24,349 nucleotides of DNA from contig JAACJG010000011.1 in assembly GCA_009917695.1 (NCBI GenBank), positions 156,997-181,345 of the forward strand. Reading direction: 5' to 3'. Below, one piece after another: positions 2,522-20,965 of the stretch; within the stretch, counting starts at the first letter, position 1; each line of letters opens with the position of its first letter. The notes below the pieces were generated by a model. That model worked only from the letters and a program-made list of their open reading frames with translations, was not told the DNA's origin and ran no database searches. A program made the position numbers and the translations under genes. Source of the stretch: Candidatus Rifleibacterium amylolyticum. Its GTDB lineage: Bacteria > Muiribacteriota > Ozemobacteria > Ozemobacterales > Ozemobacteraceae.

Positions 2522-2911
2522 ATGAACATTTTGCTTTCAATTTTTCTGCTGCCTCAACTGCTGATAATGTACATTTCATTTCATCTGCATCTTTTTGCCC
2601 TGCCCATGATCAAGGAATTGATGCAGAAAATACCGCCAGACGCCGCAACCGCACTCAATGCCAATATTGTAGTCAGAATCGCCGGAGCGTTTGCGGGAGC
2701 CATCGATGCGTTCTACGGCTTCTGGTTCATTGCGATTCCTGTTTTTGCGCTGGTTTCTCAGGTTCTCGTCTATTTTTTGAAAAAGCAGAGTGAAGCAGTC
2801 GCTAAAGTCGGTGTTCTGTTGATAATGACTTTTTTTGCTACCCTTGCCTTTATCAGTCTGTCGGCACAAATGATGACACTGATCATGGTAACCGCGAACT
2901 ACACCAGATAA
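2522..2911 (+). CDS. Small integral membrane protein, hypothetical
   Basis: The 129-aa ORF has about four hydrophobic segments (LLSIFLLPQLLIMYISF..., FWFIAIPVFALVSQVLVYFL...). Confidence 0.5.
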   Translation: MNILLSIFLLPQLLIMYISFHLHLFALPMIKELMQKIPPDAATALNANIVVRIAGAFAGAIDAFYGFWFIAIPVFALVSQVLVYFLKKQSEAVAKVGVLLIMTFFATLAFISLSAQMMTLIMVTANYTR

Positions 2912-3063
2912 GTGAACACCAACCTGATTTTAACTGCGACACCATGGCAAAATACCGACAGAGTTGTCACACCAGTTGTCGCTGAGATTCGTCACAACGC
3001 CTTTTCTGGCAGCTCTTACCGATTCCCCCGATCGCTGGCATGTCATTTGCAATTTAAGCCGGC

Positions 3064-3771
3064 ATGCATTTTCATAATGAACACAACGACATAGCGCATA
3101 CTCAACCTGGCCAGGCGGCCAGTCGTGTGCAGGCGCGCGTCTGGCAGCATGATTTCGCATATCATGCAACATCTGACCGCGGCTTCAATATTTATTTTAC
3201 GCGCGGCATCCTGTTTTATCTGATGGCTTTCATATCAGTCTGTCTTGCCATCCCTTTGATCATTACCACTGGCATAAGTGTCGAAGCATTGATCCGTGAC
3301 CCGTATGAAGGTTTCATGCTGCTTTTCTGCATCATTCTCAACCTGCTGCGAGTTCTGACGGCTGCTATTTTGTACAAATATGTGCGCGACGCCTGGCGTG
3401 AGGTAAGATTCGATGCGTTCGATCAGATGCTGACTATCGAAGATAAACTGCCCTGGTTTGAACTGAGCCGAACGCAGGTCTTCCATATTTCTGATGCAGC
3501 CGGGCTTGAGATCAGAATTCTCAGAACCGTTGATCTTGCCCCGGCCGCTGCCGATGAAGACCCGGAAAACCCGGCCTGTGAAGTGCTCATGCAGTTGAAA
3601 GACGGCAGCGCAATCGTGCTGCTGCCTCGCGTCACATCGATTCAGGAAGCCCGCACTGTGACTTACGAGATTGGCGGTCTGACCGGCCTGACCCTGCTGA
3701 CAGACATTCACTCTCTTTATCGCCATATCCCACGGATAGAACGACAGCTTGCTGATGAAGACTTACTCTGA
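3064..3771 (+). CDS. Membrane protein, hypothetical; the N-terminal start is uncertain
   Basis: The 235-aa ORF has two transmembrane-like segments (ILFYLMAFISVCLAIPLIITTG, FMLLFCIILNLLRVLTAAILY). No recognisable domain. Confidence 0.45.
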   Translation: MHFHNEHNDIAHTQPGQAASRVQARVWQHDFAYHATSDRGFNIYFTRGILFYLMAFISVCLAIPLIITTGISVEALIRDPYEGFMLLFCIILNLLRVLTAAILYKYVRDAWREVRFDAFDQMLTIEDKLPWFELSRTQVFHISDAAGLEIRILRTVDLAPAAADEDPENPACEVLMQLKDGSAIVLLPRVTSIQEARTVTYEIGGLTGLTLLTDIHSLYRHIPRIERQLADEDLL

Positions 3772-10219: not shown

Positions 10220-10249
10220 CTTTTTTGCTTTGCCGGCCGGTGCTGCCTT
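10220..10249. repeat. 30-bp direct repeat, copy 1 (CTTTTTTGCTTTGCCGGCCGGTGCTGCCTT); the second copy is at 12135-12164
   Basis: The two copies differ at 1 of 30 positions. Copy 1 is non-coding, between the convergent pirin and ankyrin-like genes. Confidence 0.7.
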
Positions 10250-10262
10250 CGGAAAATCTGAG

Positions 10263-11063
10263 TTAATCCTGTTTATCTGCGGGTGTGGGTTTAACGCGCA
10301 TACGCGAGGCTACTTCCGTCAGCTGCTTTTTGACTTTCTCATCCCTGATATCCTCGATCATGGCGTCACGAATCTCAGGCCCGGCGAGCATGAAGAACAT
10401 TTCTACAGCAGTTGGCATGGGAAATGGGACAGGCAAACGCTGGCTGATCGTCTGCCCGCTGTTGATAAGTTCTACAATTATTGCCGATCTTTGGCGCAGG
10501 CTTTCAAGAAACATCGCGCGGGAAAAATTCTTATGATCCGATTCTTTTCTGCCGACAAAAAACGCGACTACCAGGTAATTCTGGCGTTCCGGCTTGAGCC
10601 CCGCCGCTATAAGCTGGCGCAGAAGTTTAAGGTTGTCGGTTCTGACAGCAAGAGCAAGAAGATCGTAGCTGCTTTTCCCCAACTGGCCATCTTTTGTATA
10701 ATGGCTTGCAGTGAGCTCATTAAGCAGTTTTATATCTTTTGTGTCAGCCAGAATTAATGGCAACGATTTTTCTGCTCCGGCAACGACAGCCAGAGAAATC
10801 GGGTTGTAAAGCATGGTTGTTTCGCTGGCATAAAACCGATAGATGCTGTCTGTCGGCAGTTCAAAGCTGTAATCAATTGCGAACTCAGTTTTCTGACCCT
10901 TGCTGAGAAGTTGCGCCACTGTTTCAACATCATCACGAACAATGGCGTCAAGCAGCTTCTTTTGCGAAAGAACAGGATCGGGCAACGAGAAGTGCATGAA
11001 CAGCAGGTAACTGCCAATCAGCAGTGAAAAACTGATAAAAAAGGTCATGACAAATATTTTCAT
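10263..11063 (-). CDS. Membrane-anchored protein with ankyrin-repeat-like segments
   Basis: The N-terminus MKIFVMTFFISFSLLIGSYLLF is a signal or anchor. Stretches such as NPISLAVVAGAEKSLPLILA and DLLALAVRTDNLKLLRQLIAAGLKP are ankyrin-like. Confidence 0.55.
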   Translation of the reverse strand: MKIFVMTFFISFSLLIGSYLLFMHFSLPDPVLSQKKLLDAIVRDDVETVAQLLSKGQKTEFAIDYSFELPTDSIYRFYASETTMLYNPISLAVVAGAEKSLPLILADTKDIKLLNELTASHYTKDGQLGKSSYDLLALAVRTDNLKLLRQLIAAGLKPERQNYLVVAFFVGRKESDHKNFSRAMFLESLRQRSAIIVELINSGQTISQRLPVPFPMPTAVEMFFMLAGPEIRDAMIEDIRDEKVKKQLTEVASRMRVKPTPADKQD

Positions 11064-11154
11064 GCGGCAGACTATCCCCCTGATATTCTATCAGGTTCTT
11101 TACAGGAACGCACAATAGTTATAATTCGCCCAGCAATTCTCGGTCAGAATTAGT

Positions 11155-11248
11155 GTCATTCTGCGCGAGCCGTAAGGCGAAGTCGCAGAATCCACTTTTT
11201 AGCGCTTTTCTGGATCCTGCGACTGCGCTTCGCTTCGCGCAGGATGAC
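11155..11248. repeat. Long imperfect inverted repeat of about 94 nt, predicted to form a stem-loop: a 14-bp outer stem, an internal bulge, an inner stem of about 18 bp and an 18-nt loop
   Basis: GTCATTCTGCGCGA...GGCGAAGTCGCAGAATCC [loop ACTTTTTAGCGCTTTTCT] GGATCCTGCGACTGCGCT...TCGCGCAGGATGAC. The pairing was checked by hand. It lies between the HicB-like remnant and the ankyrin-like gene, both on the minus strand. Confidence 0.6.
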
Positions 11249-11295
11249 AAACAAAAAAGTCAAACCCAAAATCGTTATCACTGTTGATGATGGTT

Positions 11296-11549
11296 TTACG
11301 CCTCACCGAGAATTACTGGAAAGCGCCCGGAAACATCAGCCTCAACGTAGTCTATAGGCTTGGTTTTGGGTTCTGGAATTTTCTTTCCCATATCCATTCT
11401 TGCCGCAACCCATGCAAGAACAGCGTCTTTTCCGTTTTCAAGCGCTTCTTCTTCGGTTTCGCCATCAGACATACATCCGGGCAGATCCGGGCTTCTTTTC
11501 TTTTTCGCCGGAATTCCCAGCCCGGGGCATCTTCATCACATCTTGACAT
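11296..11549 (-). pseudogene. HicB-family antitoxin gene (UPF0150, RNase H-like fold) disrupted by a frameshift, with no hicA partner
   Basis: The minus-strand frame ending at TAA (11296-11298) encodes ...SPDLPGCMSDGETEEEALENGKDAVLAWVAARMDMGKKIPEP..., the HicB PDLPGC-x-S-x-G-x-T-x-EEAL-EN signature. That frame has no start codon upstream of the motif. An N-terminal piece (MSRCDEDAPGWEF) is in another frame. The two frames switch within the A-run CGAAAAAGAAAAGAAG. Confidence 0.55.
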
Positions 11550-11575
11550 ACCAAATATAATATATATACTATAAT
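11544..11575 (+). promoter_or_regulatory. Candidate sigma70-type promoter for higBA: -35 TTGACA (11544-11549) and -10 TACTAT (11567-11572, 17-bp spacing) or TATAAT (11570-11575). This implies a leaderless or near-leaderless transcript
   Basis: Hexamers were read from the sequence. The higB ATG at 11580 lies only 4-7 nt after the -10 element, and no Shine-Dalgarno sequence is possible. Confidence 0.4.
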
Positions 11576-11579
11576 TGGT

Positions 11580-11861
11580 ATGTGGAAAATATACGAACAC
11601 AAAAACCTGTTAAAAGCACTTGAAATGCTGCCTGTAGAAATCCTTAAGCGATATGAAAAGTGGAAAGATATAGTGGCAATTTCAGGCCCTGTTGGACTAA
11701 GGCAGATTAAAGGTTTCAATGACGAGCCATTGCGTGGGGCATGGAAAGGATACCGCTCATCTCGTCTCAATATTCAGTATCGCATTATTTACAAAATAGA
11801 AAACGAACAATTTTTTGTAAAAGTTGTTAAGGTAACGGCTCATGACTATCGGAGGAAATGA
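11580..11861 (+). CDS. higB: Type II toxin of the RelE/ParE superfamily, HigB-like
   Basis: The 93-aa protein ...FNDEPLRGAWKGYRSSRLNIQYRIIYKIENEQFFVKVVKVTAHDY matches the HigB/RelE fold signature. It is followed 1 nt later by an HTH antitoxin gene; toxin-first order is typical of higBA. Confidence 0.8.
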   Translation: MWKIYEHKNLLKALEMLPVEILKRYEKWKDIVAISGPVGLRQIKGFNDEPLRGAWKGYRSSRLNIQYRIIYKIENEQFFVKVVKVTAHDYRRK

Positions 11862-11862
11862 A

Positions 11863-12123
11863 ATGAAAGACTACATCGAGGCAAAAAAAAGAGCAGAAGT
11901 GTCTGTTGGCGAATCCGTAAGAATAATTCGTGAGCTCCAGAATTTAAGCCAGAGTGAGCTGTCTCAACTGACTGGCATACCTCAATCAACGCTTTCGGCT
12001 ATTGAGCACGATAAAATCAATCTGGGTGTTGAGAGAGCCAAAGTATTAGCAAGGGCTTTGAAATGTCATCCGGCTGTTCTGGTTTTCCCAGGCTGGGATG
12101 TAAGTCTGGAAATTGCGGCGTAA
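11863..12123 (+). CDS. higA: HTH_XRE-family antitoxin, HigA-like
   Basis: A GGAGGA ribosome-binding site precedes the ATG at 11863. VRIIRELQNLSQSELSQLTGIPQSTLSAIEHDKINLGVERAKVLARAL is a Cro/C1-type helix-turn-helix. Confidence 0.75.
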   Translation: MKDYIEAKKRAEVSVGESVRIIRELQNLSQSELSQLTGIPQSTLSAIEHDKINLGVERAKVLARALKCHPAVLVFPGWDVSLEIAA

Positions 12124-12131
12124 CCCCCGGA

Positions 12132-12500
12132 TTACTTTTTTGCTTTGCCGGCCGGCGCTGCCTTTGCAGAGGTTTTCGCCGGCTTTTTCTTCGGCTTCGG
12201 TTCGGGCAGTTCCTGTGTGGTGATTCTGATGAGCTCGCACAGCCATTCGCGATCTTCGAACTGGCCGTCGATGAGAAAATTCGGCTTCGCGCCAGGATAC
12301 GGCTGGCCCTCGACCACCTCACCGATAAAGGCGCGCCCGCCTGCCGTCGGCTTGACGAACAGCTGGTTATCGCACACCATGGCAACAACCTTGCCGCCGC
12401 AATAAATGGCATACTCGCCAAACATCTTTTTGCAGCTGACACCCTTCACATCCCGCAGCTGATCAACGATAAATTCGACAAATTCCGCATCAGAAGCCAT
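12132..12500 (-). CDS. TfoX/Sxy N-terminal-domain protein with a lysine-rich C-terminal tail
   Basis: A GAGGT ribosome-binding site precedes the ATG at 12500. MFGEYAIYCGGKVVAMVCDNQLFVKPT fits the TfoX_N core. The tail EPKPKKKPAKTSAKAAPAGKAKK is basic. Confidence 0.6.
   Translation of the reverse strand: MASDAEFVEFIVDQLRDVKGVSCKKMFGEYAIYCGGKVVAMVCDNQLFVKPTAGGRAFIGEVVEGQPYPGAKPNFLIDGQFEDREWLCELIRITTQELPEPKPKKKPAKTSAKAAPAGKAKK
12135..12164. repeat. 30-bp direct repeat, copy 2. It overlaps the 3' end of the TfoX-like gene and encodes its C-terminal tail ...KAAPAGKAKK
   Basis: CTTTTTTGCTTTGCCGGCCGGCGCTGCCTT, 29/30 identical to copy 1 at 10220-10249 and in the same orientation. Confidence 0.7.
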
Positions 12501-14357: not shown

Positions 14358-15475
14358 AGGTATAGTTCTTTGAGAAAACGGTCAGCGTCGACAAGGTCGA
14401 TGTTGCCGGACGACTGCTCGCGTTTGAGGTCTTTGACGACCTGAACCCCTTTAAGGTTGTATTTTTCGCAGAACCAGACAAGGCCGGCTGCGATTTTATC
14501 GCGATCGCTTTTTGCTTCGATTGCCATTAAGACCTGCTGGTCGCGGCACAGGCAGAAATCGACTTCCCTGCCCTCTTTTGTGCGCAGGTATTTAAGCTCG
14601 AGCCTGTCGCCGAGACAGTCGTTACTTGCCAGAACATGCTTGAGCAGGCTTACGGCGAGATGATTTTCGAATTTTGCCCCGATATCGCCAACTACCAGCG
14701 AAGTATCATAAAAATAGACCTTGGGGGCCTTCAAAATTGATCGGCCGATATTGCTTGAATACGTGTAAATCCTGAAGATAATGAACAACGACTCGAGAAT
14801 GCTGATGTAACGGGTAGCGGTGACTGGCGATATTCCGGCGTCGCGTGCGATCGAGGCGATTGAAAGCGGCGAACCGACTGAGCGCCGGAGAATCTCAAAG
14901 ACAATTTTTATCGCATTCAGGTCATTGATATTCTCAAAATTCAGAATATCGGTTCTGATAAGACCGTCAATATACTGATTGCGCCAGCGTCTGGCATCGG
15001 TATCGCTCTCAGCCAGAAAGGGCTCAGGGAAACCGCCGCGTTCGATGAAACGATCGATAGTGGCCAGTTCAGCATGTTCTTTTACTTCAGCCAGGGAAAA
15101 AGGAAGCAGACGATGCGCAAAAAAACGGCCGGCCAGCGAGTCGCCGGTCTGTCTGAATGCATCGAGGCGGGCACTGCCGGTCACCAGAATTCTCAGGCCT
15201 TCTGCTCTGGTGTCGAACACACCTTTGATATAGTTCTTCCAGCCGGGCATCTTGTGCAGTTCATCGAGTATCAGCAAATCAGTATTTCTGGGCCAGGACT
15301 CAGCCTTGATAATCTGCTGATCTTCGAAGCGATCGTAATTCAGATACTGGCTGTGCTTGAATTTTCTGGCGATTTCCTTTGCCAGCCAGGTTTTGCCGAC
15401 CTGCCGGGGGCCGACAATGAAGACAATCTTCTTTTCGAGGTCATGAAGAATCTGATCGATCTGATTTCTGCGCAT
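14354..15475 (-). CDS. AAA-family ATPase (AAA_14 domain plus DUF4143 type)
   Basis: It has a Walker A motif (IVGPRQVGKTW), a Walker B motif (LLILDE) and a C-terminal region typical of COG1373-like ATPases. Confidence 0.8.
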   Translation of the reverse strand: MRRNQIDQILHDLEKKIVFIVGPRQVGKTWLAKEIARKFKHSQYLNYDRFEDQQIIKAESWPRNTDLLILDELHKMPGWKNYIKGVFDTRAEGLRILVTGSARLDAFRQTGDSLAGRFFAHRLLPFSLAEVKEHAELATIDRFIERGGFPEPFLAESDTDARRWRNQYIDGLIRTDILNFENINDLNAIKIVFEILRRSVGSPLSIASIARDAGISPVTATRYISILESLFIIFRIYTYSSNIGRSILKAPKVYFYDTSLVVGDIGAKFENHLAVSLLKHVLASNDCLGDRLELKYLRTKEGREVDFCLCRDQQVLMAIEAKSDRDKIAAGLVWFCEKYNLKGVQVVKDLKREQSSGNIDLVDADRFLKELYL

Positions 15476-15497
15476 ATGACTATTTTATACCAGACTG

Positions 15498-15541
15498 ACA
15501 AATAGTCAAGACTATTTGTTATTACGGTAAAAAATAGTCAA
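15498..15541. promoter_or_regulatory. Operator-like element: the palindrome ACAAATAGTC-AA-GACTATTTGT (15498-15519) plus a third direct copy of AAATAGTCAA at 15532-15541
   Basis: Read directly from the sequence. It lies 23-66 bp upstream of the ATPase gene start on the minus strand, and downstream of the gspF-like gene. Confidence 0.45.
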
Positions 15542-15544
15542 ATG

Positions 15545-17431: not shown

Positions 17432-18663
17432 TGATGATACTTCGCATTGCCTGGCGCAATCTCTGGCGCAACCGGCGGCGCACGCAGCTGACCATGGGCG
17501 CCATGATATTTTCATGTGCCATGCTGGTGTTTTCGCTGGGATACTACGATGGCTTCCTGTGGAGCCTGATCAACAACGCGACCGAAAAAGAAAACGGCCA
17601 CGTTTTTATAGCACTGCCCGGCTACTACGCCAGCCCCACCCTTGAAGACGCCTGCCCCGAAGCGATATCGAGCCAGATTCCGGAGAATGTGAAAAGTGAG
17701 ATCAAGGGCGTGTGTCCGCGCCTGCAGGCCTACGCCCTGCTCAGCTGTGGCACCGAGGAAGAAAACCGCACGCAGCCGGGGCAGATTATCGCAGTAGATT
17801 ATCAGGCCGAACTCGCCAACAGCAAACTGGCCGGTGATATTGTGAAAGGCGATTTTCTGACCGGTGATGCGCGCGAAATTCTGCTCGGCCAGGGACTTGC
17901 GCGCAAAATCAGAGCTGACATCGGCAGCGAGATTATCTTTTTCAGCAGCGCCGCCGATGGCTCGATCGCTTCTGAGATACTGCTGGTCAAAGGAATCTTT
18001 TCGTCAGGCGAAAACATGCGCGATTCGAGTCTCGCCATCATGAATCTCAAGGCGGCTCAGCGGTTGCTGGCACTCGAAGAGCGCGTGCACAGCCATCGCC
18101 TTTTTCTGCGTAACCCGATGCAGGCCGAAGAGATCGCCAGCCGGCTGAATGCAGCACAGAAAAGCCTTGAGGCAACGCCATGGCAGAGTATATTTCCGCA
18201 GATTGCTGATATTCTAAAGATCTGGCTGGGTGTACAGTTGTTCACCGTTGCCATTTATTATGCCGCCATGGCGCTGATAACCTTCAATACCATGTATATG
18301 GCCTTTCTCGAACGTATGCATGAGTTCGCGGTGATGCAGGCAATCGGGTTGACGCGTGGCCTGCTGGCCATGCTGATACTGTGCGAAAGTATTATCATGG
18401 CAACGGCGTCAGGAATTATCGGCACGGCAATCGGCGCCGGCGCCAATGTAGTTCTCTTTTACCACCCGATAGATCTCAGCCGCTGGATGGAAAGCATCAC
18501 CTGGGGCGGGTCTTCGATTCAGCCGATTCTTTTCTGTGTGCCGAGTCTGCTCTCGAATCTGCTGCCGCTGCTGGCCATGATTCTGCTCGGTTTCGCGGTA
18601 GCCGCGCTGCCGACCTGGCGCCTTTACCGGCTCAAGCCGGTCGAAGCGCTGCGGGAGGGTTGA
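17431..18663 (+). CDS. ABC transporter permease of the FtsX/MacB/LolC type
   Basis: The N-terminus MMILRIAWRNLWRNRRRTQLTMGAMIFSCAMLVF matches this family. It has a large periplasmic loop and a C-terminal FtsX four-helix region. Confidence 0.8.
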   Translation: MMILRIAWRNLWRNRRRTQLTMGAMIFSCAMLVFSLGYYDGFLWSLINNATEKENGHVFIALPGYYASPTLEDACPEAISSQIPENVKSEIKGVCPRLQAYALLSCGTEEENRTQPGQIIAVDYQAELANSKLAGDIVKGDFLTGDAREILLGQGLARKIRADIGSEIIFFSSAADGSIASEILLVKGIFSSGENMRDSSLAIMNLKAAQRLLALEERVHSHRLFLRNPMQAEEIASRLNAAQKSLEATPWQSIFPQIADILKIWLGVQLFTVAIYYAAMALITFNTMYMAFLERMHEFAVMQAIGLTRGLLAMLILCESIIMATASGIIGTAIGAGANVVLFYHPIDLSRWMESITWGGSSIQPILFCVPSLLSNLLPLLAMILLGFAVAALPTWRLYRLKPVEALREG

Positions 18664-18665
18664 AT

Positions 18666-19901
18666 ATGCTGTGGCTTAAACTCGCATGGCGAAATCTCTG
18701 GCGCAACCGCACCCGCACTCTCGTCCTGCTGGCGGTTATCTCGGGCAGTCTTGCCTTTGTCGCCTGGATGCTGAACGTCTCTTATGGCTCGTATGAAAAG
18801 ATGATCGAAGACGCAGTGCGCATGGGCAGCGGCCACCTCAGCCTGCATCACCCCGACTACCCGCAGGAACGCCTGAGCGAACTGTTTTTTTCGGGCAACG
18901 AAGCGATGCCGTTACTCGAAAACCGGGCCGGCATCATCAAGACGCTGCCGCGCCTGTATGTTTCGGCGTTGGCCCGAAGCAGCCGCGATAATCGCGCCGT
19001 CATGATTCTTGGCGTCGATTTCGAAGGTGAACTCGAAAACAACCCGTTGTTGCAACCGTCAAAAACCGTCAGCGGGAAGATTCCGGCTTCTGACACCCAG
19101 AATCTTGCTTATATCGGAAACAGGCTGGCCGAAAACCTGCGCATCGATGTCGGCAAAAAGCTTGTGGTCATGTTTCAGGATCTGTCGGGCGAGATCACTT
19201 CAAAGCTCTACCGTGTCGGCGGCATTTTTAAAAGTGGCGTTAATCAGCTCGACAGCGGGACCATCTTCGTTAACCGCCTTTCTCTGGCAACCGCGCTCGG
19301 CAACAGCGACGCCCTGCACGAAATCGCCATTCTGCTGGCTGACCGTGAGCAGCTGCCCGAGCAGCTGGCGCAGCTGCAGAAAGCCTGCGCCGGGCATAAG
19401 GATATCGCGGTTTTTTCCTGGGAAACGACTTCAAAACAGATCGCTGATGCGATCAAGATGGACAGCGCCCAGTTCAAATTCATGATTTTTCTGCTGTATG
19501 TGCTGGTAACGATCGGCACGATAAATCTGCTGCTGATGAGCATACTCGAAAGAACCCGAGAATTCGGCCTGTTGCGAGCCATCGGCCTCGACCGTCGGCG
19601 TATCGGCGGCCTGATTTTCTGCGAAGCGACGTTGCTGGGCATTATCGGTGCCCTGGCCGGGCTGGTTCTGACGATTGTTTTAAGTCTTTACAGCTGGCAT
19701 TATGGCCTCGATTTTTCGAATATGTTCGGCGAGGCTGAAGTTGCCGGCATGCTGGTCAGTATGAAGGTAAACAGCACCTGGGAATGGGATTGGATGTTCG
19801 GTCTCGCGGCCGGCATGGTAGTCGTCGTCATTCTGGCTGCGATCTACCCGGTTAAAAAGGCCCTGCGCGCGGCGCCGGCCGAAGCCATGCGGCATCACTG
19901 A
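18666..19901 (+). CDS. ABC transporter permease of the FtsX type, second copy
   Basis: ATG at 18666 gives MLWLKLAWRNLWRNRTRTLVLLAVISGSLAF. The ORF-track extension back to 18381 overlaps the previous permease gene in another frame and is rejected. Confidence 0.8.
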   Translation: MLWLKLAWRNLWRNRTRTLVLLAVISGSLAFVAWMLNVSYGSYEKMIEDAVRMGSGHLSLHHPDYPQERLSELFFSGNEAMPLLENRAGIIKTLPRLYVSALARSSRDNRAVMILGVDFEGELENNPLLQPSKTVSGKIPASDTQNLAYIGNRLAENLRIDVGKKLVVMFQDLSGEITSKLYRVGGIFKSGVNQLDSGTIFVNRLSLATALGNSDALHEIAILLADREQLPEQLAQLQKACAGHKDIAVFSWETTSKQIADAIKMDSAQFKFMIFLLYVLVTIGTINLLLMSILERTREFGLLRAIGLDRRRIGGLIFCEATLLGIIGALAGLVLTIVLSLYSWHYGLDFSNMFGEAEVAGMLVSMKVNSTWEWDWMFGLAAGMVVVVILAAIYPVKKALRAAPAEAMRHH

Positions 19902-19910
19902 GGAAATTAA

Positions 19911-20600
19911 ATGAGTATAGTATCAACCACAGACCTGAAACGTGTTTATGAAAGTGGCGCAACCGAGGTAAAAGCGGTTAACGGCGTCAGCCTGAGTATC
20001 GAAGCGGGCGAGTTTGCGGTTCTCGCCGGGCCTTCCGGCAGTGGCAAGACGACTCTGCTGAATCTGATCGGCGGGCTTGACCGACCGACAGATGGCAGCG
20101 TTCACCTCGATGGCGAACTGCTCAACGACAAAAGTGACGACGAACTGACACGGGCGCGGCTTTTCAAGATAGGGTTCATTTTTCAGGCATATAATCTGGT
20201 GCCGGTATTGAGCGCTTACGAGAATGTGCAGTTCATTCTGCAGATTCAGGGAGTTCCTGATTCAAAGCATGAAGAGCGCATCATGCCGCTGTTTGAAGAG
20301 CTTGGCCTGAGCGGGTTGGCGCATCGCCGCCCGGGCGAACTCAGCGGCGGCCAGCAGCAGCGCGTTGCAGTGGCACGCGCCATTGTCGGGCACCCTTCGA
20401 TCATTCTCGCCGACGAACCGACGGCAAATCTTGATTCAGAGAGCGCGGTAGCGCTGCTTAACCTGATGCATCGCCTCAATCTTGAACAGAAGGTCACTTT
20501 TCTGTTCAGCTCGCATGATAAAAAGGTCATAGACATAGCACAACGGGTCATCTCGATGCGCGACGGTAAAATCTGTGATGATCACAAAAAAACGCAGTAG
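19911..20600 (+). CDS. ABC transporter ATP-binding protein of the MacB/LolD type
   Basis: It has a Walker A motif (GPSGSGKTTL), the ABC signature LSGGQQQRVAVARA, a Walker B motif ILADEPT and an H-loop. Confidence 0.9.
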   Translation: MSIVSTTDLKRVYESGATEVKAVNGVSLSIEAGEFAVLAGPSGSGKTTLLNLIGGLDRPTDGSVHLDGELLNDKSDDELTRARLFKIGFIFQAYNLVPVLSAYENVQFILQIQGVPDSKHEERIMPLFEELGLSGLAHRRPGELSGGQQQRVAVARAIVGHPSIILADEPTANLDSESAVALLNLMHRLNLEQKVTFLFSSHDKKVIDIAQRVISMRDGKICDDHKKTQ

Positions 20601-20878
20601 TGGTCTGTCACATTTGAACTGCGGGGTAAAGTTGAGCTGAATGCGAAACAAGTTAAGCAGACAAAACAAGGGCGCAGGCGGGTTTCTCAGGCGCGGAAAC
20701 TTCGAGCCAGGCGACGTTGACGCAGAGCCATAGCTATACAACAATACTCACGCCTGGTGAGAGTTGTAGCGAATGAGATTCCGCCGAGAGCCCGGTATAA
20801 GCGGAGATTCTAAGATTTAATTCTTGAACTCTTATGTGACAGAGGAGTAGTGGTCTGACAAAGTTGAATCGCATGGTA
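20594..20878. repeat. Pair of imperfect direct repeats of about 35 bp (20594-20628 and 20844-20878, about 77% identical) flanking a 215-bp non-coding segment
   Basis: GCAGTAGTGGTCTGTCACATTTGAACTGCGGGGTAAA versus GGAGTAGTGGTCTGACAAAGTTGAATCGCATGGTAAA. The first copy contains the ATPase stop codon; the second precedes the downstream gene. Confidence 0.5.
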
Positions 20879-20965
20879 AAAAATGGTCACAGTGAAGAGA
20901 GTAGCGACGAAGCAATCCATCTGCCAATGGGATTAGCATCAGAGCTGGGCTTATGCCTCCTGCAT

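Follow-up and report, generated by a model that had tools for sequence, protein, structure and literature searches.

In a 24,349-nt stretch of the genome of Candidatus Rifleibacterium amylolyticum (hereafter the window, within which all element coordinates are numbered), we examined an imperfect palindrome of 96 bases at positions 11154-11249. We estimate a probability of roughly 80% that this element is a gene-less, head-to-head heterodimer of two CGTC/TGTC-tagged repetitive extragenic palindromic (REP) hairpins, of the class that comprises the NTS repeats and the Ssn-related motifs (SRM). This reading is carried by the anatomy of the two hairpins, their membership in a widespread family, covariation within the arms of that family, and the association of those arms with a gene for a small GIY-YIG nuclease. 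The capacity for binding and cleavage specific to single-stranded DNA (ssDNA) is taken from published work on that nuclease (PMC11893778), and it would extend to the window variant by analogy.

The initial annotation had described the site as a long stem-loop with an outer stem and an inner stem of about 18 bp containing two mismatches, and we recovered both sets of inverted repeats. The outer arms (11154-11168 and 11235-11249) are 15 nt long and 93% complementary, while the inner arms (11177-11194 and 11211-11228) are 18 nt long, 89% complementary with two mismatches, and enclose a 16-nt loop. Compared with dinucleotide-preserving shuffles (n=200), the dyad folds very strongly, with a predicted minimum free energy of -54.6 kcal/mol (z -6.63) for the plus-strand RNA, -54.1 kcal/mol (z -6.49) for the minus-strand RNA, and -30.9 (z -5.56) when folded as DNA; none of the 200 shuffles folded as well. 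The two strands are thus equal in RNA fold stability. There is one copy of the dyad in the 24-kb window, and it is flanked by two minus-strand open reading frames (ORFs), at 11296-11472 and 10263-11063. The annotation had placed it between a HicB-like remnant and an ankyrin-like gene, both on the minus strand. The strand assignment held, and the first name found some support in a match of 11296-11472 to HicB_lk_antitox that falls under the Pfam cut-off (E 9e-5). The second name could not be upheld, since the 266-aa product of 10263-11063 had no match in a Pfam search; in related genomes, an ankyrin-repeat gene comes one gene further along.

Within the dyad lies a feature that the initial annotation did not see, which is that each arm forms a perfect 8-bp hairpin of its own, free of mismatches. 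The left monomer (11154-11194, plus strand) has the layout of a CGTC-tagged REP. It opens with a TGTC tag (11154-57), after which the stem strand ATTCTGCG (11158-65) pairs with CGCAGAAT (11184-91) around an 18-nt loop, CGAGCCGTAAGGCGAAGT (11166-83), and a CCA tail follows (11192-94). The loop contains a GCC-GTAA-GGC mini-hairpin with 3 inner bp. The right monomer (11211-11249, minus strand) reads TGTC-ATCCTGCG-CGAAGCGAAGCGCAGT-CGCAGGAT-CCA, with its tag at 11246-49, a perfect 8-bp stem formed by 11238-45 and 11214-21, a 16-nt loop (11222-37) that includes a GCGAAGC mini-hairpin, likewise of 3 inner bp, and a CCA tail (TGG on the plus strand) at 11211-13. Folded alone as DNA, the left monomer reaches -11.0 kcal/mol (z -3.3) and the right monomer -9.6 kcal/mol (z -2.5). 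A 16-nt spacer, CTTTTTAGCGCTTTTC (11195-11210), separates them, and because the tags lie outermost and the CCA tails point inward, the arrangement is head to head. In sequence, the right arm is the same as the canonical "C-variant" long arm, GTCATYCTGCGCGAAGCGAAGCGNAGTCGCAGRATCC. Where the long stem has its two mismatches and its wobble, the left and right arms differ from each other, and each arm retains its own pairing at those positions.

These features correspond closely to the CGTC-tagged REPs, a class that takes in the Neisseria dRS3 repeats and the Rickettsia repeats RPE-4 and RPE-6 (PMC3733652, Di Nocera et al. 2013). In that definition, the tag is CGTC and often TGTC (variants TGTC and CCTC), the stems are 8-9 bp and start with AT, the loop is 4-5 nt, the tail is CCA, and head-to-head dimers with the tags outside predominate. 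In the window element, the tags are the listed variant TGTC and are unpaired, the 8-bp stems have A-T and T-A as their first two pairs, the tails are CCA, and the heterodimer carries its tags outside and can fold into either a pair of hairpins or a single large stem-loop. Like members of that mostly intergenic class, it is repeated, occurring at three or more loci of the Rifleibacterium lineage (the window and the loci we label L163 and L169/L270).

A second description of related repeats brings in a nuclease. In PMC11893778 (Chenal et al. 2025), an oriented form of dRS3, termed NTS, and the SRM are reported to flank ssnA, which encodes a single-domain GIY-YIG protein (cd10448). The window arms resemble these repeats in their (C/T)GTCAT head, which gives them an orientation, in a stem that starts with AT, and in an ATCC(A/R) tail. 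They differ in the stem itself, which has TCTGCG in the window variant versus TCCCGCG, and in their host, which belongs to a candidate phylum, Riflebacteria.

The element is one of a large family. A pattern that required both outer arms and allowed any nucleotide at the variable base matched at least 120 stretches in genomes of GTDB species, along with 3 viral contigs. About 13 phyla appear to be represented among the both-arm matches listed, of which Acidobacteriota is the most frequent, and the other groups listed are Gemmatimonadota, Bacteroidota, Ignavibacteria, Planctomycetota, Verrucomicrobiota, Chloroflexota, Bacillota, Actinomycetota, Nitrospirota, Desulfovibrio, Pseudomonadota, and Saccharimonadales. 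In these copies, a common arm, GTCATYCTGAGCGAAGCGAAGRATC, surrounds a variable center of 20-50 nt. With a one-arm pattern for the C variant, at least 120 loci were recovered from metagenomes, many of them apparently from termite guts and many carrying the GTCATYCTGCGCGAAGCGAAGCGNAGTCGCAGRATCC long arm, and the two scans together gave more than 240 related copies. Single-copy status, which the initial annotation had named as counting against its proposal, therefore does not hold for this family. Across the copies, a T precedes the tag in 78% and an A follows the element in 71%. Relatives with short loops (GAA, GAAG) fall in the same wider family. As a separate observation, loci L253 (Roseiflexaceae, 2720-3520) and L264 hold variants that keep the GTCAT head and self-pairing with an altered stem (ATGCTGCA/TGCAGCAT and ATCCCCGC-GAAG-GCGGGGAT).

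Covariation identifies which of the possible structures is conserved. Among 505 non-redundant arms, in counts that ignore shared descent, the pair 6-22 is T-A in 242, C-G in 222, and G-C in 9, and about 6% are non-Watson-Crick; the pair 8-20 is T-A in 451 and C-G in 33. The adjacent pairs 9-19 and 10-18 switch together, being tandem G.A/A.G in 231 arms and G-C/C-G in 250, with mixed states nearly nil, a contrast that stems in part from the selection of the C variant in the second scan. The two arms of a single element match each other less well, being identical in only 77% of cases at position 6 and, for the metagenome set, in 69% at position 8. Given that covariation is found within arms and that agreement between arms is weaker, we conclude that the arm hairpin is the conserved unit and that the long dyad is a by-product of two such hairpins in inverted orientation.

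The stability of the whole dyad nonetheless raises the alternative that the element acts mainly at the RNA level, serving the HicB-like gene as a 3' untranslated region (UTR) stabilizer or terminator, or else regulating the 266-aa gene from its 5' UTR. The predicted minus-strand RNA hairpin is very stable, both flanking genes lie on that strand, and REPs in general have been proposed as RNA elements (PMC3733652). In addition, copies of the family, which are intergenic in 130 of 154 resolvable cases, are somewhat enriched at the 3' ends of genes (44 convergent, 64 tandem, and 22 divergent). However, the sequence past the stem, ACAAACAAAAAAG on the plus strand and ACACTAATTCTG on the minus strand, has no T-run on either, and a terminator scan of 10900-11700 did not report the element, which agrees with the earlier remark that it is unlike a typical intrinsic terminator. 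A structured noncoding RNA, one of the identities that the initial annotation had offered, finds no backing in Rfam, which returned nothing at gathering thresholds across the whole window and, at E<=10 in 10900-11600, matched the element only with two weak microRNA precursor hairpins; the two strands, as noted, fold equally well. Covariation speaks for the two small hairpins of the arms rather than for the long stem. Moreover, both the GCGAAGC mini-hairpin and tandem G.A pairs are motifs known for their high stability in DNA. Finally, SsnA showed no RNA interaction in vitro (PMC11893778). We consider a mainly RNA-level role unlikely, and we prefer the reading of the element as a doublet of DNA hairpins. 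A hammerhead core was also considered for CTGAGCGAAGCGAAG and was rejected on the misfit of the core, in which an A is replaced by a C in the window element.

The association of the arms with a nuclease gene emerged from a survey of neighboring genes, in which 6953 ORFs from about 245 loci were clustered all against all. A GIY-YIG nuclease was the sole protein family that recurrently adjoined the arms. At three loci (L241, L178, and L142), a short arm and a long arm enclose the gene exactly, and the gene adjoins arms at four others (L005, L196, L199, and L252), with internally deleted genes at L199. With the gene on the plus strand, the unit begins with a short arm, continues through 15-20 nt that include a ribosome-binding site and then the gene of about 100 codons, and ends with a long arm, and at L241, L178, and L142 the final codons of the gene lie within the long arm. 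The roughly 100-aa product is a single-domain GIY-YIG protein (PF01541, E 1e-15) with 3257 homologues at E<=1e-5. Among the best 120 of these 3257 homologues, most have C-terminal tails whose codons, in three reading frames, come from the arm; MDSATPLRSAQNDK, SGPCDFAQGD, and GFCDSASLRAE are examples, and some tails are in tandem. The protein encoded at L178 shares 54% identity with the product of an N. gonorrhoeae gene situated between canonical NTS (CGTCATTCCCGCG...GGGAATC repeats).

The very arm variant found in the window flanks an ssn-like gene on both sides at L241, L178, and L142. An association of hairpins with an ssnA homologue is likewise seen with this variant at L252 and in the arm-encoded tails of homologues, and it is not seen at the window copy. 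In the full-length relatives, the gene occupies the position of the spacer, and the window copy has its 16 nt there instead, which makes it a gene-less doublet. In variants such as those at L253 and L264, arm types look as though they co-vary with the adjoining GIY-YIG genes. When six-frame peptides of the element were compared with 5.8 billion proteins, with the aim of catching spurious ORFs over sister copies, there was no match at E<=1e-3, because the peptides of the window variant are too short or too divergent. A literature search on the arm DNA, on the arm-encoded peptides VILSEAKDL, SFASLRMT, and RFAQDDK, and on COG2827, UPF0213, and YhbQ brought up nothing relevant.

As reported in PMC11893778, SsnA binds the hairpin only as ssDNA and on one strand, cuts a few nucleotides upstream of the tag, and belongs to an NTS-ssnA-NTS layout that resembles an insertion sequence and was likened to REPs and their RAYT (REP-associated tyrosine transposase) partners. 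If the window arms behave in the same way, each arm would fold separately whenever the region becomes single stranded, as during replication, transformation, or repair. A folded arm would then be a putative target that a cognate Ssn nuclease, with its gene elsewhere in the genome, would bind and cleave. The doublet itself may derive from, or have been spread by, a hairpin-ssn-hairpin cassette, much as REPINs (doublets of REPs) relate to RAYT transposases. At the window locus, the element probably has no dedicated cellular function beyond that of a recombination- and deletion-prone repeat.

The comparison with REPINs can also be taken literally, in that the element could be a REPIN or bacterial interspersed mosaic element, a GTAG-type REP doublet moved by a RAYT, which is an IS200/IS605-like Y1 HUH transposase. 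Both systems feature inverted, self-folding hairpins with a short unpaired tag, a single nuclease gene between inverted hairpins, many gene-less doublets in intergenic DNA, recognition of ssDNA, and no target-site duplication, and PMC3733652 leaves it possible that CGTC-tagged REPs use RAYTs or other transposases. Yet the tag here is TGTC or CGTC rather than GTAG, and the HUH tyrosine transposase is unrelated to GIY-YIG. The only family recurrently adjoining the arms is the GIY-YIG nuclease (no Pfam scan specific to Y1_Tnp was made), and PMC3733652 describes CGTC repeats as having no associated transposase genes or enzyme and concludes that a dedicated transposase is lacking. We therefore regard a true REPIN as very unlikely, and the likeness as one between systems that pair hairpins with a nuclease of the Ssn kind here and with a RAYT there.

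Copies within the Rifleibacterium lineage are consistent with a dispersed repeat. Exact protein matches (GQF41_35xx) assign the window itself to a 181-kb contig of Ca. Rifleibacterium amylolyticum. At L163, a doublet 98% identical to that of the window includes both a 24-nt left extension, CCAGCAATTCTCGGTCAGAATTAGT (11130-11153, plus strand), and the 16-nt spacer; the spacer is identical at L163 and similar at L169 and L270. Related doublets occur at L136 and L169, and the flanks of L163, L136, and L169 are all unrelated. Proteins at L163 and L169 cluster at >=90% identity with Ca. Rifleibacterium amylolyticum GQF41_1000/1002 and GQF41_0646/0648, and it is on this basis that we count at least three loci in the lineage.

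The same copies help to delimit the repeat unit. The left extension contains a small AATTCT/AGAATT hairpin and is kept beside the left arm at the independent loci L163 and L136 despite their unrelated further flanks; judged from this sequence conservation, it is part of the repeat unit in the Riflebacteria subfamily, and it looks like a decayed extra half-repeat. On the other side, a short flank, AACAAAAAA (11250-11258, plus strand), is common to other copies in the lineage, and the junction GATGACAAACAAAAG recurs in L169 and L270-L274, so that this flank is probably the end of the unit. An inverted copy of the left-extension motif, CCAGTAATTCTCGGTGAG (11302-11319, minus strand), lies within the 3' end of the HicB-like ORF. 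Together, 11130-11147 and 11302-11319 form an 18-nt inverted repeat with 89% complementarity that encloses the doublet plus 53 nt, for which a rough estimate of chance occurrence in the region is about 0.004. In our data, this right-hand copy is unique to the window locus, and whether it belongs to the element is uncertain.

The orthologous site varies among relatives. In a related Riflebacteria genome (L254-L257), a TfoX_N gene lies directly beside the 266-aa gene, the homology breaks at window position 11122/11123, and the site has neither the element nor the HicB-like ORF nor the toxin-antitoxin pair found nearby in the window. In another assembly (L258, GCA_012515325.1), the element is kept and a deletion of 137 nt, corresponding to window 11242-11378, removes the 3' end of the HicB-like ORF; one end of the deletion lies inside the right arm (GTCATCC^TGCGCG). 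The copy at L270 has a truncated arm. Short-read assemblies from several samples end at or inside arms, at window positions 11159, approximately 11233, and 11285, and also at two sister loci (the loci concerned are L001, L002, L126-L129, L259-L261, L269, and L272-L274), as expected of a repeat or a polymorphic site. We considered whether the Logan contig ends at 11159, 11233, and 11285 represent an empty-site haplotype and set this idea aside, as they show only assembly breaks from which no alternative haplotype can be reconstructed.

Several observations weigh against our assignment of the element to the NTS/SRM class. The window loops, at 16 and 18 nt, are longer than the 4-5 nt of CGTC-tagged REPs, and with a mini-hairpin of their own they also depart from the 0-5 nt of the published SRM pattern. 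That pattern, HGTCWYN(0-2)YYVSBRHN(0-5)WNVSBRGN(0-2)RNCYNB, has no match across the window, including either arm. It also misses the arms of L241, L178, L142, L252, and Planktothrix, and it matches the Neisseria (L265) and Azospirillum (L264) loci that served as positive controls. There is no ssn gene in the 24-kb window, in which a six-frame search did not find GIY-YIG and a scan of 30 ORFs found no integrase, transposase, or GIY-YIG gene. The covariation counts, as noted, take no account of common ancestry among the arms. Lastly, the "empty" site in L254 is also without the toxin-antitoxin genes, and therefore it provides no clean footprint of excision or insertion.

Outside this lineage, two plasmids carry full cassettes of the class. 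On plasmid AZO_p3 of Azospirillum lipoferum 4B (255374-255992, L264), a dimer-ssn-dimer cassette of about 530 bp lies between sufB and sufC, which are adjacent, with the cassette absent, in three close relatives, A. ramasamyi (whose flanks are 96% identical), A. sp. B510, and A. brasilense. On plasmid p1 of Planktothrix agardhii (18530-19446, L262), an ssn-like GIY-YIG gene and several hairpin doublets sit between an MmeI restriction-modification gene and drmA of a DISARM defense system. A blastn search against plasmids gave no match for either the generic element or the window element.

The element might be a miniature inverted-repeat transposable element, that is, an internally deleted insertion sequence recognized through its terminal inverted repeats by a DDE transposase, and its conserved inverted-repeat ends, variable center, and many dispersed copies would suit this. 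However, we found no target-site duplication among family copies, as matches of 2-5 nt are at or below chance, and at no locus does a transposase lie between the arms. Furthermore, the "inverted repeats" each fold on themselves into a hairpin that shows internal covariation, and we hold this origin to be highly improbable. Least credible of all is an attC site of a chromosomal integron cassette, folded as ssDNA and recombined by IntI, since the imperfect palindrome, the length within about 60-140 nt, the variable center, the activity of a folded single strand, and the toxin-antitoxin genes alongside are offset by the absence of RYYYAAC and GTTRRRY cores from 11100-11300 (as the initial annotation had itself noted), of a tyrosine recombinase from the 30 ORFs scanned, and of an array beside intI (there is one copy in 24 kb), and since the arms self-fold and keep their sequence across phyla, where attC sites conserve structure rather than sequence, and enclose GIY-YIG genes rather than cassettes in related copies. 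The attC, RAYT-REPIN, DDE-transposon, and terminator readings fail because each misses a defining test, and of the three identities first suggested for the dyad it is the REP type that survives, on its tag, stem, tail, and head-to-head arrangement, while the attC site and the structured RNA do not.

Beside many elements of the family, we also observed tandem arrays of up to 6 units that repeat every 22-26 nt, each unit joining only the terminal 11-14 nt of an arm to about 10 nt of flanking sequence. Such half-end arrays occur at L054 (2612-2879), L032 (1700-1775), L214, L097, L003 (880-1200 and 3630-3760), L262 (1195-2050), and L252 (3320-3390), and in some cases they are read as part of the GIY-YIG protein, to which they add repeated tails (DFAQGDKS x3). 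No description of them was found in the available portions of PMC3733652 and PMC11893778. These arrays may be the footprint of a cleavage or repair mechanism.

A bolder proposal is that the hairpin-ssn-hairpin cassettes and the gene-less doublets together constitute an active mobile ssDNA system built on a GIY-YIG nuclease, analogous to REPIN/RAYT, of which the window copy would be a recently dispersed, trans-mobilized member belonging to a widespread subfamily that the SRM pattern misses. We put this forward tentatively and consider it less likely to be true than false. If it were true, the half-end arrays (L054, L032, L214, and Planktothrix) would be footprints of Ssn cleavage and repair, and the arm-anchored deletions (L258 and L270) and repeated assembly breaks would be footprints of the same kind.

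The remainder of the window holds several other repeats. Further monomers are limited to candidates at chance level, such as 1441-1469 on the minus strand with one mismatch, where about 0.5 would be expected. Near the element, 11580-12123 (plus strand) encodes a RelE/HigB-like protein together with a helix-turn-helix partner. A near-perfect AT-rich palindrome, ACATACCAAATATAATATATATACTATAATTGGTATGT (11546-11583), lies where the HicB-like and RelE-like genes diverge, overlaps hexamers that resemble a promoter, and is probably the operator of the toxin-antitoxin pair. A 30-nt direct repeat with 97% identity, CTTTTTTGCTTTGCCGGCCGG[T/C]GCTGCCTT (10220-10249 and 12135-12164), encloses the 266-aa gene, the element, the HicB-like ORF, and the toxin-antitoxin pair. 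Its second copy forms the final ten codons of the TfoX_N gene, and its first copy is non-coding and follows the 266-aa gene, a placement that suggests a past rearrangement or duplication. Farther away, a 35-nt inverted repeat (15473-15544) with 83% complementarity and its halves 2 nt apart lies between the AAA_14/DUF4143 and T2SS-F genes, and it can also be read as a 32-nt tandem direct repeat (GACTATTT...AATAGTCAA). Downstream of an ABC-transporter ATPase gene, a 35-nt direct repeat, AGTAGTGGTCTGTCACATTTGAACTGCGGGGTAAA (20596-20630 and 20846-20880), has copies that are 80% identical and 250 nt apart.

The repeat class to which we assign the window element has been known since 2013 and its link to a nuclease since 2025, and the element itself is an ordinary gene-less doublet. 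Its wider importance lies in the family, as the published SRM pattern misses both the C variant and the very widespread GTCATYCTGAGCGAAGCGAAGRATC variant. Ssn/SRM systems are probably underestimated in surveys based on that pattern, particularly among Acidobacteriota, bacteria of termite guts, and candidate phyla. The covariation within arms, including the swap between tandem G.A and G-C pairs, provides natural specificity variants for an enzyme family that has been proposed as an ssDNA-cutting tool. In addition, the clean presence and absence of the whole cassette at the Azospirillum suf locus, together with the half-end arrays, make the putative mobility of these cassettes a testable idea.

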